Positions 1 through 6,438 are shown, numbered from the stretch's first letter. The stretch is 6,438 bases of DNA from a virus (IMGVR_UViG_2671180547_000008); one strand, 5' to 3'. The notes: a model not told the origin generated them from the sequence alone. Program-made: numbers and translations.

Positions 1-90
1 ATTTTCTACAATCGTCAGCGTCGTCACTCTCGTCTGGGGAATATCTCCCCGGCAGCCTTCAGGGAAAAATATCATCAGATGGCTGCTTAA
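1..90 (+). CDS. Transposase C-terminal fragment (DDE/integrase-type, partial at window edge)
   Basis: Translation of 1-87 gives IFYNRQRRHSRLGNISPAAFREKYHQMAA, then TAA at 88-90. The YNxxRxHSxLGxxSPxxF pattern is the conserved C-terminal motif of IS3-like DDE transposases. Confidence 0.7.
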   Translation: MFYNRQRRHSRLGNISPAAFREKYHQMAA

Positions 91-133
91 AAAAAGAACA
101 AATGGTAGTGTCCGCTATTGCCAGTACACCTCA
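1..133 (+). mobile_element. Right end of an IS element (IS3-family-like; possibly IS600-like), with the element body lying left of the window
   Basis: Bases 1-133 are the exact reverse complement of 6306-6438, and identity stops at ...ACACCTCA (133), consistent with a TG...CA-type IS terminus. Bases 1-90 encode a transposase C-terminus. The terminal sequence resembles the IS3 terminus as I recall it (GCAATAG.GGACAC). Family assignment is from motif memory only. Confidence 0.7.
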
Positions 134-317
134 GGATAGCGGTCATGTGATGCCGGTTTCCCGGTAACTCAGCACCGGTATCTGAGTCAACGTTTTCTCT
201 ACTGGGTCATTTCCGATACGCCCTGCCTGCTGACAGGCTTTCATCACATCTGAAAATATAGCACCCTGACTGATACTGTAGTACCTAAGGTTCCAGAAAC
301 TGTGATGTATCCGGCAC

Positions 318-345
318 AGAAAAGCCCCTCCGGAGAGGGCTGGAG
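318..345 (-). terminator. Candidate intrinsic terminator downstream of the tRNA genes
   Basis: The minus strand reads GCCCTCTCCGGAGGGGC (GC-rich stem with one bulge, tetraloop) followed by TTTTCTG. It lies about 230 nt 3' of the tRNA-Arg(UCU) end. Confidence 0.3.
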
Positions 346-577
346 AGTGGCGCTATGTGCCATTGCATGATGCCGGGTGCCTCCCGGTGAATTCAGTACC
401 AGCACCTGAATCCGCGATTATCCCATATACCTACTCGCTGATTGCCCCTCCGCACAGGGGGATTCACCATGCCAGTTTCTTTTAACAAACTCCCCGCAAA
501 ACAGACAACTGTCAACCGTCTGAATTGTGAGACATTTAAAAAAAAGGCCCGCAAAAGCGAGCCAGGGAAAATAAGTG

Positions 578-654
578 TGGCGCGTTGTACTGGATTCGAA
601 CCAGTGACCGATTGCTTAGAAGGCAATTGCTCTGTCCGGCTGAGCTAACAACGC
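578..654 (-). tRNA. tRNA-Arg, anticodon UCU (reads the rare AGA codon)
   Basis: The minus-strand sequence GCGTTGTTAGCTCAGCCGGACAGAGCAATTGCCTTCTAAGCAATCGGTCACTGGTTCGAATCCAGTACAACGCGCCA folds as a 77-nt cloverleaf. Acceptor GCGTTGT/ACAACGC, D-stem GCTC/GAGC, anticodon stem ATTGC/GCAAT with loop CTTCTAA, T-arm ACTGG-TTCGAAT-CCAGT, discriminator G and encoded CCA. Confidence 0.9.
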
Positions 655-667
655 ATGATGCAGATAA

Positions 668-744
668 TGGACCGCCATCGGGGACTTGAACCCCGCGCAG
701 CCAGCTTCGAAGGCTGGCGCTCTTTCCTGATGNNNNNNNNNNNN
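668..744 (-). tRNA. tRNA-Arg, anticodon UCG (reads CGA); the 5' end of about 12 nt is hidden in the N-run
   Basis: Visible minus-strand 3' portion: ...GAGCGCCAGCCTTCGAAGCTGGCTGCGCGGGGTTCAAGTCCCCGATGGCGGTCCA. Anticodon stem CCAGC/GCTGG with loop CTTCGAA, T-arm CGGGG-TTCAAGT-CCCCG, acceptor 3' strand ATGGCGG, discriminator T, CCA. The 5' acceptor and D-stem fall in the Ns at 733-760, so the 744 boundary is extrapolated. Confidence 0.7.
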
Positions 745-760
745 NNNNNNNNNNNNNNNN

Positions 761-1733
761 GCCCGAGCGCCAGTGCCGCTTTCACTGTCGAACCCAACCC
801 CATGAAAAAATCTGCAATCAGGTCACCCGGACGACTGCTAGCGCTGATTATCTGCTGCAGCATTTCTGCCGGTTTTTCGCACGGATGTTTCCCGGGATAG
901 AACTGCACCGGTTTATGCGTCCACACATCGGTATACGGCACCTGCACCGTCACGCCAAAATACCGCCGCAGATGTTTATATTCACTCAGCAGCTCCGCAT
1001 ACTGCCGGTTCAGTGAGGTATACGTATCCACCAGCTGGTGGTGGAGCTTTTCCAGTTCACCACGCCGATGCTTCTCTTCTGCCACCCGGGCAAACAGCGC
1101 CTGTAATTTCAGATAATCGCTTTCATTCGGCAACTGCCACTGACCGGCACTGAACCAGTGCGACACCATGTTTTTCTTTCCTGTGGCATCTGCAATCTGT
1201 TTTGCCGTTATCCCCAGGGCAGCTCGCGCATCACGAAAGTAAGAAATCAGCGGGGCCATCACATGCTGTTTCAGTGCACTGCCCTTCGCCGCATACCCGG
1301 CATCTTTCGGACGATACGGCCCCTGATAATGTTCCGCGAACAGAATGCGCTCTGTGGCGGGGAAATACGCCCGCAGGCTTTCCTTGTTGCATCCGTTCCA
1401 GCGTCCGGACGGCTTCGCCCAGATAATATGGTTCAGCACACTGAAGCGTTCACGCATCATGATTTCGATATCAGATGCCAGGCGATGACCACAGAACAGG
1501 TAAAGACTTCCGGCAGGTTTCAGCACCCGCCAGAACTGCGCCAGACACTGGTCCAGCCACTTCAGGTAATCATCGTCGCCCTTCCACTGGTTATCCCAGC
1601 CCTCAGGCTTCACTTTAAAGTACGGCGGGTCCGTGACTATCAGGTCAACAGAATTTTCGGGTAACGACCGGATAAATTCCAGGCAGTCGGCGTTGATTAA
1701 CTCACAACTGGATATTTTTACAGTATTAAGCAT
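761..1733 (-). CDS. Beta-class N6-adenine DNA methyltransferase (phage-type orphan MTase); C-terminus interrupted by the N-run and probably truncated
   Basis: Starts at ATG 1733. DPPY (motif IV) lies near the N-terminus (IVTDPPYF) and the FxGxGST SAM-binding motif I (DFFMGLGSTVKAALALG) near the C-terminus; motif IV before motif I defines the beta class. There is a central HTH-like insert (ITAKQIADATGKKNMVSHWF). The six-frame ORF nominally runs to 645, but only through Ns and across the tRNA, and the post-N translation (IRKERQPSKL...) lacks the expected R-x-IG-x-E continuation. Confidence 0.85.
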
Positions 1734-2225: not shown

Positions 2226-2272
2226 GTAGAAACTCTTCTAACGTCAGGCATAAAACGCCCATCGTTATAACG

Positions 2273-2300
2273 AATTTACCACAGATTCCGGAAAAATCAA
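2273..2300 (-). promoter_or_regulatory. PR'-like late promoter immediately 3' of the Q-like gene
   Basis: Minus strand has -35 TTGATT (plus 2295-2300), a 16-nt spacer and -10 TAAATT (plus 2273-2278). The -35 directly abuts the stop codon of the Q-like gene (2306-2308), the same geometry as Q/PR' in lambdoid phages. Confidence 0.45.
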
Positions 2301-2305
2301 CCTTG

Positions 2306-3127
2306 TTACCTAGTTACCTTTTTTAACTGCCGCTCAGCCCATGCTTCTTCAATATCAAACCGGGTCACCAGCGCATCATAAAATTTCTTAACTGTTTTTT
2401 CCCATGACGCGCGTGTTATCTGGTTTGTCACCTCGCATATAGCATTAAATGCCTCCGTTGATGGTAGTCTTTCATAGCCACGACCACCACAACGCTGGCA
2501 GTCTCTGATAACAGGCATACCACGTTTTACCGACTCTTCACGATGAATGGCGACACCACGCCCACGGCAATCCTTACAGGCGGTGGAAACCTCACCCTTT
2601 CCGCCACACTCCGGACAGGCAACTTTTACCACCTCCCTGACTTTTTTCCATTCTTCCCAGTAAGACGGATACACACCTTTCGTACACTTTGCCCATACCG
2701 GCGGCTTACCATCCGGATACTGGATCTTGTTTGTAAAAACCTCGCTTTCAATAAATTTTTTTCCGTGACAGCAGGGGCACTGTTTTTTGCTCGCCGCGCT
2801 ACGGGCATAATCTTCAAACGCATACGAAGCCATAATACGCATCACTGCCGGTTTTATTTCTGCCGGGAGTTTTCTTAACGCCGCCACGCGATCACACCGA
2901 CTGAGTGCATATTCTGTCAGCAATTCTGTTGCCCGCTCTCTGTCATTCATACTAATGCCCATTTTCCCAAGGAACGCAGAAACCCCCATCTCAGCCCGAT
3001 TCTGTGTCATGCCCTGCGCGGCCATCACATCAGTGATACTCAGCGCATCTTTCGACGTTGAGGCCGATGCATCAGTCAGGCCGGGGGATTTTGGGGAGTA
3101 GTATTTCGGTAAATCTTCCAGTTTCAT
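2306..3127 (-). CDS. Putative late-gene antiterminator (Q-like, QuuQ-type) with repeated CxxCxGxG zinc-finger motifs
   Basis: 273-aa ORF. Its ATG (3127-3125) overlaps the rusA stop as ATGA. It carries one CPCC and three CxxCxGxG motifs (CPECGGKG, CKDCRGRG, CQRCGGRG). Position after rusA and before a promoter-terminator pair matches Q genes of lambdoid phages. Identity is inferred from synteny and motifs, not alignment. Confidence 0.5.
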   Translation of the reverse strand: MKLEDLPKYYSPKSPGLTDASASTSKDALSITDVMAAQGMTQNRAEMGVSAFLGKMGISMNDRERATELLTEYALSRCDRVAALRKLPAEIKPAVMRIMASYAFEDYARSAASKKQCPCCHGKKFIESEVFTNKIQYPDGKPPVWAKCTKGVYPSYWEEWKKVREVVKVACPECGGKGEVSTACKDCRGRGVAIHREESVKRGMPVIRDCQRCGGRGYERLPSTEAFNAICEVTNQITRASWEKTVKKFYDALVTRFDIEEAWAERQLKKVTR

Positions 3128-3504
3128 TTTTTGACCTGCCCTTCAAGCATTATGGGATAAATCTTCACCCCCAGACGTCCACCAGATACTGGCTGAGCAC
3201 GAACGATATTGATTTCATCAAACTGCTCATCGTCCATTAGCAACCCCGCATGCGTCAGCGCATCCAGCGGCGCTTTCAGAATATTGTCCAGGTCACGGCG
3301 GCGCTTATCCGGTGGTTCTGCAATAATTTTTATTGCCAACCTTCCGGACAGGCTTAATTTCAGCCGCTGCTGGCGAACAATAAGCGCCACTGCCCGGCGA
3401 TAACGCTCCCCGGCTTTTGATACAAAATATGTGCTGCCACGACGACGCCAGTAAGTGTTCACCGTCGGCGGGTAAGGTAAAACAAATTCTATGCGCTCGG
3501 TCAT
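3124..3504 (-). CDS. rusA: RusA-type Holliday junction resolvase (crossover junction endodeoxyribonuclease)
   Basis: The 126-aa product has LPYPPTVNTYWRRRG, DKRRRDLDNILKAPLDALTHAGLLMDDEQ and VSGGRLGVKIY, which match the recalled RusA signature blocks ([48 protein letters not shown]). Its start follows the DUF968 stop directly (TAAATG). Confidence 0.9.
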   Translation of the reverse strand: MTERIEFVLPYPPTVNTYWRRRGSTYFVSKAGERYRRAVALIVRQQRLKLSLSGRLAIKIIAEPPDKRRRDLDNILKAPLDALTHAGLLMDDEQFDEINIVRAQPVSGGRLGVKIYPIMLEGQVKK

Positions 3505-4563
3505 TTATGCTTTCCACTTCAGAACACCCGAATTTCTCGCGTGCATTAAAAAACGAATCAGCAACAACAGCTGACTGCCGTGTTTCTCTTCAAAATCTTT
3601 TACTCCGGCATGTAGTTCGTTACGGCATTTACGGCATAACGGAATAACAAACAAATCATCAGCCTTTGTTCCCATCCCTCCCAGTCCATGACCAATGATG
3701 TGATGCGGATCATCTGCCTGATTGCCACACGTCATGCATTTCTGCGTTTTTACCCAGCGCGTGTATACAGGCATCTCTTCCCGTTGTGATTTCTGGCGCT
3801 GGAGATACTGAGCCGGTGACTCCGGATCAACGGCAATGCTGACCACCGTCTTTTCCTGTGGTGGGTTCTGTTGCTGGTGGACGTGAGGCAGTAACGCAAT
3901 ATTTTTTGTGCGCTGCTTCAGTATGCTGGTGGCTGTCTGCTCTCCCGGTATGATGTCGCTTTCACTGTACACAGAGCGAATTTTTTCCGCACGCAACCCC
4001 AGCGAACGACGTAATACCGCTTCCGGTAGCGCGTCCGCCACCTGATTGCGGACCGCCCACCAGGATAATTCAGCCAGAGATAATTCACGCTCCTGCGTAC
4101 CGCTTATTGCGTGACCGATGACGTCAATCATCCATGCTGACAGGTTTTGATGAGCAAGTTGCTCGAGTGATTCGGATGTCTGGTCACGCAGCTGGTTGTC
4201 GCAGTGCCAGCACAACACCATTGCGCCGGTACCATAACGGTGAATGACGGTTTCGCTGTGATGATAATCGCCGTGTGGCCACTGGCAGGATTTAATATGG
4301 CGCAACAGCCAGTCAGACAATGCACCAGCACCACCAGCAGCACGAATCACCCGTGCGTTACTGAAAAACGGCAGCAATGTTTTGTCTTCCACCAGCGGCT
4401 GGCGAGCGGCAGGAACGACCCCGGACGGCAGATTACGCATGCTTTTTGGTTCCGGCTCCACCAGTATTCTGCCGTTATGGAATGCTGACATTGATTCACG
4501 GCCTGGCTTAACGATAACCAGACCGAGTTCCGGTACCAGAACAGGTCGAAGTAATACCCGCAC
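3505..4563 (-). CDS. DUF968-like prophage protein (YdfU-like) with a C-terminal HNH/zinc-binding-like motif
   Basis: 352-codon ORF starting with GTG at 4563, 4 nt after GGAGG; an alternative ATG at 4491 gives MSAFHNGRIL. The C-terminus has CMTCGNQADDPHHIIGHGLGGMGTKADDLFVIPLCRKCRNELH (CxxC...HH...CxxC...H). Size and position between a small gene and rusA/Q match ydfU in Qin-like prophages as I recall them. Confidence 0.6.
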   Translation of the reverse strand: MRVLLRPVLVPELGLVIVKPGRESMSAFHNGRILVEPEPKSMRNLPSGVVPAARQPLVEDKTLLPFFSNARVIRAAGGAGALSDWLLRHIKSCQWPHGDYHHSETVIHRYGTGAMVLCWHCDNQLRDQTSESLEQLAHQNLSAWMIDVIGHAISGTQERELSLAELSWWAVRNQVADALPEAVLRRSLGLRAEKIRSVYSESDIIPGEQTATSILKQRTKNIALLPHVHQQQNPPQEKTVVSIAVDPESPAQYLQRQKSQREEMPVYTRWVKTQKCMTCGNQADDPHHIIGHGLGGMGTKADDLFVIPLCRKCRNELHAGVKDFEEKHGSQLLLLIRFLMHARNSGVLKWKA

Positions 4564-4564
4564 A

Positions 4565-4920
4565 TTACCTCCAGATCCGTTGCTGGAATGTGCGGGACGG
4601 ACGCGTTGGCCGTTCGGAGTAAGGGAGCCTGACGGAGATTATCCAGTGACGGTAGTCGAGGCTAAGGGCTTTTTTAACCTCGCATCCGCGCCTGCGGTAA
4701 CACTGAATGAGCCATTCGGCCTGTTCTTCAGTGCATGGGGGATGCTGGTACCAATCAGATTTAAATGCGTGAGAGCGCCGCCCGTGCCTGCTGGCAAAGA
4801 CGGCTGAATTATCAGAATTGTGTAGTCTGGAAGGCAGTGGCTGACAATAGCGCCATTCTCAACGCGCACAGTATAGAGGCCATCTTCACTAAAAATTTCA
4901 CGTAATTCTTCGATTTTCAT
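4565..4920 (-). pseudogene. Small nin-region gene with a frame discontinuity (rem-position gene); an intact 93-aa frame runs 4639-4920 but looks degenerate after about 40 aa
   Basis: ATG at 4920 has GGAAGGA 8 nt upstream. Frame 0 reads MKIEELREIFSEDGLYTVRVENGAIVSHCLPDYTILIIQPS, then turns low-complexity (LPAGTGGALTHLNLIGTS...). A second frame with no start codon reads ...TEEQAEWLIQCYRRRGCEVKKALSLDYRHWIISVRLPYSERP... and ends with TAA at 4565-4567, overlapping the DUF968 start region (GGAGGTAATGTG). Confidence 0.4.
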
Positions 4921-5003
4921 CAACAGAATCCTTCCAGATAAATAGCACTCCCCTGTTCGGGGTCCATCCCTCTTCTCCCTGCGCGCTACTTAAGTATTTT
5001 TGA

Positions 5004-5032
5004 TTCTATTCCGGCACCATCTAAAACTTCAA
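5004..5032 (-). promoter_or_regulatory. Candidate sigma70 promoter for the nin-like operon (small gene, DUF968, rusA, Q)
   Basis: Minus strand has -35 TTGAAG (plus 5027-5032), an 18-nt spacer and -10 TAGAAT (plus 5004-5009). It lies between the hok terminator and the RBS of the 4920 gene. Confidence 0.35.
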
Positions 5033-5040
5033 ACGCGTTG

Positions 5041-5071
5041 AAAATAAAAACAAAAACCCGCCGAAGCGGGT
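5041..5071 (-). terminator. Rho-independent terminator of the hok transcript
   Basis: The minus strand reads ACCCGC-TTCG-GCGGGT followed by TTTTGTTTTTATTTT. It lies about 75 nt 3' of the hokD stop. Confidence 0.7.
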
Positions 5072-5140: not shown

Positions 5141-5296
5141 TTACTCCTCAGGTTCGTAAGCTGTGAAGACAGCGACCTCCGTCTGGCCGGTTCGAATTCG
5201 TACCTCGCAGAGGTCTTTCCTCGTTACCAGTGCCGTCACTATGACGGTTAAACAGATGACGATCAGGGCGATTAACATCGCCTTTTGCTGCTTCAT
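5141..5296 (-). CDS. hokD: Hok-family type I toxin (HokD/RelF-like, 51 aa)
   Basis: The product MKQQKAMLIALIVICLTVIVTALVTRKDLCEVRIRTGQTEVAVFTAYEPEE has the Hok single transmembrane helix and the conserved C-terminal pattern (compare Hok ...[26 protein letters not shown]), and matches my recollection of E. coli HokD. An in-frame upstream ATG at 5353 (MNGKSRLASYVPKGKEKQA-) occupies the position of the mok start in the R1 hok/sok leader. Confidence 0.9.
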   Translation of the reverse strand: MKQQKAMLIALIVICLTVIVTALVTRKDLCEVRIRTGQTEVAVFTAYEPEE

Positions 5297-5344
5297 AGCC
5301 TGCTTCTCCTTGCCTTTCGGCACGTAAGAGGCTAACCTAGATTT

Positions 5345-5425
5345 GCCGTTCATAGATTGAGCCTCAGATTAATGTTAAGCGTCTTGCCGGACGCGTAATG
5401 TTAACTGGGGCTTTTCTCTATCTGC
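5345..5425 (+). ncRNA. Candidate Sok-like antisense RNA with its promoter (-35 at 5310-5315, -10 at 5333-5338)
   Basis: The plus strand has TTGCCT, a 17-nt spacer and TAACCT, which aligns by recollection with the R1 sok promoter (TTGCGC, 17 nt, TATCCT). The predicted transcript is antisense to the mok-like start region and ends in a U-rich stretch (GGGGCTTTTCTCTATCTGCCTTTTGG). Exact 5' and 3' ends are not determined. Confidence 0.35.
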
Positions 5426-5472
5426 CTTTTGGTGTTCATGCCTGAGACAGATAGCCTCAAGCACCCGCTGCA

Positions 5473-6305: not shown

Positions 6306-6438
6306 TGAGGTGTACTGGCAATAGCGGACACTACCATTTGTTCTTTTTTTAAGCAGCCATCTGATGATATTTTTCCCTGAAGGCTGCCGGGGAGATATTC
6401 CCCAGACGAGAGTGACGACGCTGACGATTGTAGAAAAT
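6306..6438 (-). mobile_element. Right end of a second, inverted copy of the same IS element, with the element body lying right of the window
   Basis: Exact reverse complement of 1-133. The plus strand begins TGAGGTGTACTGGCAATAGCGGACAC at 6306. Confidence 0.7.
6349..6438 (-). CDS. Transposase C-terminal fragment (partial at window edge), identical to the copy at 1-90
   Basis: Mirror image of 1-90; the stop codon is at 6349-6351 on the minus strand. Confidence 0.7.
   Translation of the reverse strand: MFYNRQRRHSRLGNISPAAFREKYHQMAA

Follow-up and report, generated by a model that had tools for sequence, protein, structure and literature searches.

The ileZ-argN-argO cassette is already known, being named in phage GenBank records and routinely annotated by RefSeq. 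It is also carried by phages 933W and VT2-Sakai, and the gene names are taken here from the GenBank annotation of Stx2a_F723; a literature search under the names ileZ, argN, and argO yielded nothing usable. In the Stx2 phage Stx2a_F723 (AP012533.1), the genes are annotated in the order Q, ileZ, argN, argO, stx2A, and stx2B, the tRNA genes thus preceding the toxin genes, as the original prediction for the present locus had said of Stx-converting phages. A further group of relatives is formed by the stx-negative lambdoid prophages of FDAARGOS_1059, TUM10008, and O121 201805972 and by ten complete genomes (L010–L019), all of which have the same module as the locus described here, at 97–100% identity. 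The module common to these stx-negative relatives consists of methyltransferase, ileZ, argN, argO, terminator, STnc100, SASA/DUF6645 esterase, holin, and lysozyme.

The DNA analysed here, referred to below as the window, is a stretch of 6,438 nucleotides from a virus (IMGVR_UViG_2671180547_000008). By sequence comparison, positions 578–744 are shown to correspond to argN and argO of an ileZ-argN-argO cassette in the late operon of lambda-like E. coli and Shigella prophages, and the host element is an IS-riddled, stx-negative prophage remnant that is probably defective. Window 540–732 matches 282 phage records, chiefly Stx2 phages, at ~94% identity, and the gene lengths and the 13-base and 7-base spacers are alike in Stx2a_F723, from which names and order were taken, so the proposed homology with the cassette of these phages was confirmed. 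The window differs from its stx-negative relatives in having 28 N in place of 221 bases, and it has an IS600 insertion at 132/133 that is absent from the complete E. coli genomes searched and present in several of the near-identical ones. Of 5426 complete genomes of E. coli, 2424 have a match to window 520–1000, the median number of places per genome being 2 and the maximum 13 and, with the cassette stretch present in nearly half of these genomes, the locus carries small weight as a discovery. Its value is corrective: ileZ seemed to be lost, an impression that most likely arises from a 28-N run standing for 221 bases, a cargo slot that seemed empty is occupied by RNA elements of the STnc100 type and by an IS600, and an argument from codon usage is good for AGA, AGG, and CGG and fails for CGA, the bias not being specific to the cassette.

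The two arginine tRNA genes

The argO-type gene for tRNA-Arg(UCU) occupies 578–654 on the minus strand, is 77 nt long with an encoded CCA, and is recognised both by ARAGORN and by the Rfam tRNA model (RF00005; 70.1 bits, E=3e-14, gathering score 29). The argN-type gene for tRNA-Arg(UCG) lies at 668–744 on the same strand, separated from argO by a 13-nt spacer (655–667), and 65 nt of it are readable (668–732), the 5' 12 nt (733–744) being N. The readable part, 732 down to 668, is CATCAGGAAAGAGCGCCAGCCTTCGAAGCTGGCTGCGCGGGGTTCAAGTCCCCGATGGCGGTCCA and displays the anticodon loop CUUCGAA followed by the T arm, by the 3' strand of the acceptor stem, and by a CCA that is part of the gene; these 65 nt are identical to positions 8589–8653 of the near-identical complete genome L010. 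In the window itself, argO is the sole tRNA gene found by ARAGORN, and argN is called neither by ARAGORN nor by Rfam because its 5' 12 nt fall inside the N-run at 733–760. In nine near-identical complete genomes, ARAGORN gives tRNA-Arg(tcg) at the matching gene, with 100% identity over the 65 nt, and the full-length argN of L010 reaches 58 bits with the Rfam tRNA model. Thus, the original prediction was right about the coordinates and both anticodons, the UCU one being established by ARAGORN and Rfam and the UCG one by reading of the anticodon loop, and prediction of the second gene succeeds in the near-identical genomes, which have sequence in place of the N-run. Both of the tRNA-Arg genes that it announced do exist, on the minus strand (the strand had been left unstated), although only the UCU gene is fully callable in the window, whereas the UCG gene is partly readable. 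Open reading frames listed mechanically over the tRNA genes (393–626 on the minus strand, and 442–648 and 655–900 on the plus strand) were discarded as artefacts of that listing.

Position A20 and position C35 are identity elements for ArgRS. An A at position 20 can be read from the sequence in both D-loops, AGCCGGACA in argO and AUCAGGAAA in argN, and C35 is present in both anticodons, UCU and UCG, so argO and argN appear to carry the identity elements for arginine acceptance. The host gene argU of K-12 shares with argO the anticodon loop CUUCUAA, the D-stem, the T-loop, and the encoded CCA. However, the two are identical at only 56 of 77 bases, and paired changes have altered three of the stems (acceptor, anticodon, and T); argO is therefore of separate descent and was not copied recently from the host. 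The host counterparts of ileZ are ileX and ileY, which encode tRNA-Ile2 with a CAU anticodon modified to lysidine, and we know of no host equivalent of the UCG anticodon of argN. The argO gene of the window differs from that of Stx2a_F723 at one base, position 37, which is A in the window and G in the phage. Position A37 is the usual t6A site in tRNAs for ANN codons. As a side observation, the argO of Stx2a_F723 (L003 3538–3614) has the loop CUUCUGA, whereas CUUCUAA is found in the window, in other stx-negative prophages, and in argU of the host.

The 28-N run and the position of ileZ

Where the window has a run of 28 N (733–760), near-identical complete genomes have 221 bases. This near-identical set comprises the ten complete genomes L010–L019, which were found through the exact Q protein of the window and show 0–3 mismatches with it over 5,678 bases (99.9–100% identity) and 100% identity over window 1–732; one of them, HE616528.1, is presumably Shigella sonnei 53G. 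The left-end IS600 is missing from three of the ten (L014, L017, and L018), whose match begins at base 133 and, in L018, contains a gap of one base, while in L019 an IS copy splits the matching stretch. In all ten genomes and, by alignment, also in E. coli FDAARGOS_1059, the sequences on either side of the N-run are separated by 221 bases. In order, these 221 bases comprise 86 nt from the methyltransferase 3' end, 40 nt of spacer, a tRNA gene of 76 nt with anticodon CAU, a further 7 nt, and the 5' 12 nt of argN, and a promoter-like site, TTGAAG-17-TATTAT, also lies within them. The 12 argN bases that are absent from the window read CCGCCATTAGCT in the near-identical genomes. The tRNA(CAU) corresponds to tRNA-Ile in RefSeq and to ileZ in the Stx2a_F723 record, and ARAGORN labels it as Met because the anticodon alone is read. 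In L010, ileZ scores 72.5 bits with the Rfam tRNA model, the values for ileZ, argN, and argO being 72.5, 58.0, and 70.1 bits, respectively.

The best 40 complete-genome matches to window 520–1000 extend over 668–674 bases for 477–481 query bases, and tRNA-Ile is annotated between the methyltransferase and the Arg tRNA genes in each of these 40. In a sample spread over the whole ranking, it is found there in all 42 matches that have both flanks (under a tRNA-Met label in two), and one more match, H158, annotates that CAU tRNA alone. A direct junction between methyltransferase and argN occurs in none of the best 40 matches and none of the spread sample. The position of ileZ, 7 nt 5' of argN, coincides in the window with the N-run at 733–760. 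The original prediction had stated that the third tRNA of the Stx phages, that for Ile, was not found here; as a statement about biology this is not supported, ileZ being present in the ten near-identical genomes and in every relative examined that has both flanks. Most likely, as judged from these relatives, ileZ is present in the real genome and hidden by the N-run, and its absence would be an assembly artefact. A mis-sized or masked gap is plausible because IS600 copies bound the window on both sides, in the manner of short-read contigs.

The alternative would be a true deletion variant, in which 28 N is the real length and the isolate has lost ileZ together with the promoter and the final 28 methyltransferase codons. 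The N-run does measure 28 bases and the window itself does not fix the real length, but argN needs 12 of these 28 bases, which would leave 16 to connect argN directly with methyltransferase codon 324, a junction that exists in no relative examined. Moreover, the 221 bases are found in all ten complete genomes, which have 0–3 mismatches with the window over 5.7 kb, and the window is bounded by IS600 on both sides, like a short-read contig, all of which makes a deletion of this kind very hard to credit.

Transcriptional context and the downstream slot

The placement of the tRNA genes downstream of Q and PR' in the original prediction was correct, since a Q gene, a PR'-like promoter with the lambda pause motif, and a tR'-like terminator are all located upstream of them. 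The gene for the Q-type antitermination protein, 2306–3127 on the minus strand, encodes 273 aa (Pfam PF03589, 1.6e-53; 'antitermination protein' in RefSeq), whereas Q has 144 aa (a 435-nt gene) in Stx2a_F723. This long Q contains two Antiterm matches and a CXXC zinc-finger-like stretch with a weak, sub-threshold DnaJ_CXXCXGXG match. Six bases past its stop codon starts a PR'-like late promoter with pause element (2258–2300, minus strand), which consists of TTGATT-16-TAAATT (2300–2273) followed, after 6 nt, by AACGATGGG. It was found by alignment with lambda, in which the counterpart after Q is TTGACT-17-TAAATT-6-AACGATGGG, and was not flagged by a consensus promoter scan of the window. The lambda motifs are taken by us to be PR' and the sigma-dependent pause element. 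A hairpin at 2206–2225 on the minus strand, ~40–60 nt past the PR'-like start, resembles the intrinsic terminator tR'.

Between tR' and the cassette, the minus strand carries a 65-codon open reading frame (1884–2081), which is a 'hypothetical protein' in relatives and has no match to a Pfam family, a terminator-like hairpin at the end of this frame (1880–1897), and the gene for an N6/N4 DNA methyltransferase (761–1733; PF01555, 1.4e-35; 'DNA-methyltransferase' in RefSeq). The 3' end of the last gene is lost in the N-run, so that 324 of 352 codons are readable; in L010 it is a 352-aa gene. A 362-aa frame at 645–1733 on the minus strand, which runs through the N-run into the tRNA genes, was rejected as an artefact, the true methyltransferase having 352 aa. 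The prophage rRNA methyltransferase of PMC10810198 was also considered for the window enzyme and dropped, its gp5 being of the MT-A70 family and the window enzyme of the N6_N4_Mtase family (PF01555), and the passages considered mention no link to the tRNA cassette. The cassette is thus located ~1.5 kb downstream of PR' on the same strand, with two terminators between them, and is followed, 14 nt after argO, by an intrinsic-terminator-like hairpin of 7 bp and T8 (546–563, minus strand) that is also found in L002, a related prophage locus.

The cassette of Stx2 phages is like that of the window in gene order, in the 13-nt argN-argO spacer, in the terminator 3' of argO, and in its site downstream of Q, and the hexamers of its ileZ promoter are the same as in the relatives of the window. 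However, in Stx2 phages the cassette is the first element after tR' and ~110 nt of methyltransferase are left, whereas in the window the 65-codon frame and a complete methyltransferase gene come first. In L003 3788–3938 and in L004, both from Stx2 phages, the methyltransferase remnant aligned with L002 6308–6458 has a stop codon and lies 5' of the ileZ promoter.

The evidence for a promoter of the cassette comes from relatives, its site in the window being the N-run. The sole promoter-like match in 2.4 kb of L002 is TTGAAG-17-TATTAT, which ends 9 nt 5' of ileZ; one match against 2.1 expected in this consensus scan is not above chance. Six diverged loci keep both hexamers except for one base of the -35 hexamer (TTGAAG/TTGCAG), the spacer between them being variable. 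In addition, a transcription start for these tRNAs has been reported in EHEC (PMC7547250). Because a promoter-like site precedes ileZ and a hairpin follows argO, the cassette has the appearance of an autonomous unit inside the late operon, with a candidate promoter and a terminator of its own.

On the other side of the cassette, tblastn searches with Stx2A and Stx2B gave no match in the window, in L010–L019, or in related E. coli prophage loci, and recovered the positive control, L003, at 100% identity. No protein-coding cargo is present in the 577 bases between the cassette and the window end, which lies inside IS600. Instead, an STnc100-family RNA element (312–501, minus strand; Rfam RF02076, 123.6 bits, gathering score 47), with its own terminator-like hairpin at 341–323, directly follows the tRNA terminator, in the slot that is used by stxAB in Stx phages. 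A second STnc100 copy (152 bits) is found beyond IS600 in complete genomes, the two elements of L010 being at 8820–9009 and 10553–10764. A third STnc100 match, at window 85–273, scores 21.8 bits, below threshold. The slot in which the STnc100 elements sit is the one where a study of Hfq places prophage 'anti-sRNAs' (PMC4104026).

The right end of an IS600 ('IS3-like element IS600 family transposase' in RefSeq) occupies window 1–133 on the plus strand and separates the cassette from the esterase gene, with the last 29 codons and the stop of an IS3-family transposase readable at 1–90 on that strand. This IS600 end recurs in inverted orientation at 6306–6438, and the window resembles a draft contig with IS repeats at its borders. 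The junction between IS600 and prophage at 132/133 occurs in seven of the ten genomes L010–L019 and in no complete E. coli genome searched; an exact-pattern scan of genome contigs gave no match to it either. Past IS600, the complete genomes contain the second STnc100 copy and then a 617-aa SASA/DUF6645 (sialate-esterase-like) gene and, in L014, L017, and L018, which are without that IS copy, holin and YdfR-type lysis genes come after the esterase gene. The statement in the original prediction that no cargo follows therefore holds for stx and for any protein gene in the remaining 577 bases, but an STnc100 RNA and an IS600 do follow and, in complete genomes, the esterase gene. Both features of the window that looked unusual, the missing Ile tRNA and the missing cargo, most likely stem from an assembly gap and from the end of the window in an IS element.

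In Stx2 phages, stx2AB is placed just past the end of a common block. This block, shared at 92% identity by L002 6020–6458 and L003 (Stx2a_F723) 3501–3938, starts ~110 nt within the 3' part of the methyltransferase gene and ends exactly at the terminator that follows argO; beyond it the content differs, with stx2AB in the Stx2 phage and STnc100 elements in the other, while in the window these elements are accompanied by IS600. Since a dead methyltransferase remnant is retained upstream of ileZ, the comparison suggests that the Stx2 arrangement derives from one like that of the window.

The content of the early region differs among near-identical prophages. Compared with L001 8698–10919 (TUM10008), window 4822–5071 is without ~1.8 kb that contain a helix-turn-helix gene and a hypothetical gene and, in the comparison of the window with L014, L017, and L018, ~250 bases around rem are missing. 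A hok/sok type I toxin-antitoxin locus lies at 5291–5466 on the minus strand (Rfam sok, 112.4 bits), with an open reading frame at 5141–5353 on the same strand; it is annotated as hokD in relatives.

Codon usage, selection, and possible roles of the tRNAs

Codon usage, given here per 1000 codons, was compared with a host baseline consisting of the annotated genes of one E. coli strain, which is not the window's own genome. In the host core (76 genes, 22,333 codons) the values are 1.07 for AGA, 0.90 for AGG, 4.16 for CGA, 4.84 for CGG, and 4.07 for AUA. The eight readable genes of the window have 7.2, 2.9, 2.2, 14.4, and 13.7 for the same five codons and, in a related full prophage, the late genes have 4.8, 5.3, 3.5, 14.6, and 4.7 and the early genes 7.1, 5.8, 5.5, 10.4, and 11.8. 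Thus, AGA, AGG, and CGG are 2–7 times enriched in prophage genes relative to the host core (Fisher p of 1e-4 to 1e-15 in the full related prophage), whereas CGA is unenriched (2.2–5.5 in prophage genes versus 4.2 in the host core) and AUA is enriched solely outside the late genes, which have 4.7 versus 4.1 in the host core. A second prophage of the same genome, without tRNA genes, exhibits a similar enrichment in AGA, AGG, and CGG; enrichment is therefore no predictor of cassette carriage, and the bias is a general property of acquired DNA.

The original prediction had assigned to the two tRNAs the decoding of rare AGA and CGA codons and had proposed a comparison of these codons with the host. 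The AGA half stands, and AGG and CGG are also raised, but CGA is flat, the enriched CGN codon being CGG, and the bias is not specific to carriers of the cassette; the 'CGA' of its title would be better given as 'CGA/CGG, mainly CGG'. The codon data fit a role in broad rare-codon capacity and do not fit a role tailored to the late genes or to a cargo gene.

The tRNA genes are well conserved. In five diverged copies compared with L010 as reference, ileZ differs at 0 of 76 positions, argO at 0–1 of 77, and argN at 1–5 of 77, whereas in the more diverged copies the flanks differ by 14–15% (methyltransferase remnant), 17–20% (promoter region), and 8–38% (downstream flank). The tRNA sequences are also almost invariant between stx-positive and stx-negative contexts. 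Because the remnant, the promoter spacer, and the sequence downstream are kept much less well than the tRNA genes, selection would act on the tRNAs themselves, and the pattern fits functional tRNAs under selection, with argN the least constrained. In L019, an IS4-family element (8641–9976, corresponding to window 681–693; 426-aa ORF, NF033592) is inserted inside the T arm of argN and flanked on both sides by the 13 bases GGGACTTGAACCC, a GGGG-N7-CCCC site, and ARAGORN calls ileZ and argO only. In size and target, this insertion appears to resemble IS186. Since the element splits argN, this tRNA seems dispensable at least in L019.

From the anatomy of the locus and its relatives, the following mechanism can be proposed. 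A sigma-70-type promoter 9 nt 5' of ileZ would direct the transcription of the three tRNAs, with their 7-nt and 13-nt spacers, up to the intrinsic terminator and, with a promoter of their own, the tRNAs would be made in the lysogen. Upon induction, RNA polymerase modified by Q and starting from PR' would read past the terminators at 2225–2206, 1897–1880, and 563–546, and through this Q-dependent read-through the cassette would be transcribed along with the late genes. The mature tRNAs would then decode AGA/AGG (UCU), CGA/CGG (UCG), and AUA (ileZ, modified to lysidine). The benefit could be general for acquired DNA and untied to one cargo gene, because most of these codons are commoner in prophage or acquired genes. 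Taken as a whole, the reading that combines the identity of the cassette, the assembly gap, and a supply of rare-codon tRNAs from an own promoter and from Q-dependent read-through is considered quite likely. Its part on identity is near certain, and its functional part, a supplemented decoding of AGA/AGG, CGA/CGG, and AUA, is somewhat favoured.

A narrower view, contained in the original prediction, is that the tRNAs mainly serve a cargo such as stx, in which case a cassette without cargo and ileZ would be a decaying variant. The position of stx2AB directly after argO in Stx2 phages and the absence of stx from the window and the near-identical genomes agree with this view. However, the 2424 E. 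coli genomes with a match, out of 5426 complete ones, are probably far above the number with stx, the tRNA sequences are almost invariant with or without stx, ileZ is present in the near-identical genomes, and relatives have a candidate promoter and a terminator of the unit's own, so that service to a cargo is very improbable as the main role. Alternatively, the tRNAs could be unused passengers in a conserved block that flanks a site where lambdoid phages exchange accessory genes and that acts as an anchor for recombination. The block shared with Stx2 phages does stop exactly at the terminator after argO, with different content from there on, and includes a non-functional methyltransferase 3' remnant of ~110 nt; but the tRNA genes are far better preserved than this remnant, the spacer of the promoter, and the sequence downstream, which points to selection on the tRNAs themselves, and a passenger role is hardly believable. 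A link with satellites, which integrate into prophage genes (PMC10111431), was considered for their attachment sites and discarded, the passages on tRNA in that source giving no tie to the cassette.

The tRNAs might also be spares against host defence, replacing host tRNAs cut by the anticodon nucleases of defence systems or by colicins and escaping cleavage themselves. In this regard, argO keeps the anticodon loop of argU and differs from it in every stem, the UCG anticodon is, to our knowledge, without a host counterpart, and colicin D cleaves arginine tRNAs. Phage tRNAs rescue cells from tRNA nucleases in recent work: phage 21, which is closely related to lambda, has a tRNA-Thr(UGU) that counters P2 Old (PMC12445682), and two further papers concern phage tRNAs and tRNA nucleases (PMC10264068, PMC11555353). 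However, the literature considered here names no nuclease that acts on tRNA-Arg(UCU), tRNA-Arg(ICG/CCG), or tRNA-Ile2 in lambdoid infection, and the stem differences would be expected just as much if the origin were old and independent. The three anticodons coincide exactly with those classically associated with rare codons, for which decoding is the simpler hypothesis, and a role as anti-defence spares is thus improbable. The general question behind these two functions is codon supply versus escape from tRNA nucleases, on which the locus gives no special handle. Finally, it is conceivable, although doubtful, that the cassette is a domesticated asset of the host, kept intact with its own promoter, which would support rare-codon decoding for acquired AT-rich genes or provide nuclease-resistant Arg and Ile tRNAs against toxins such as colicin D.
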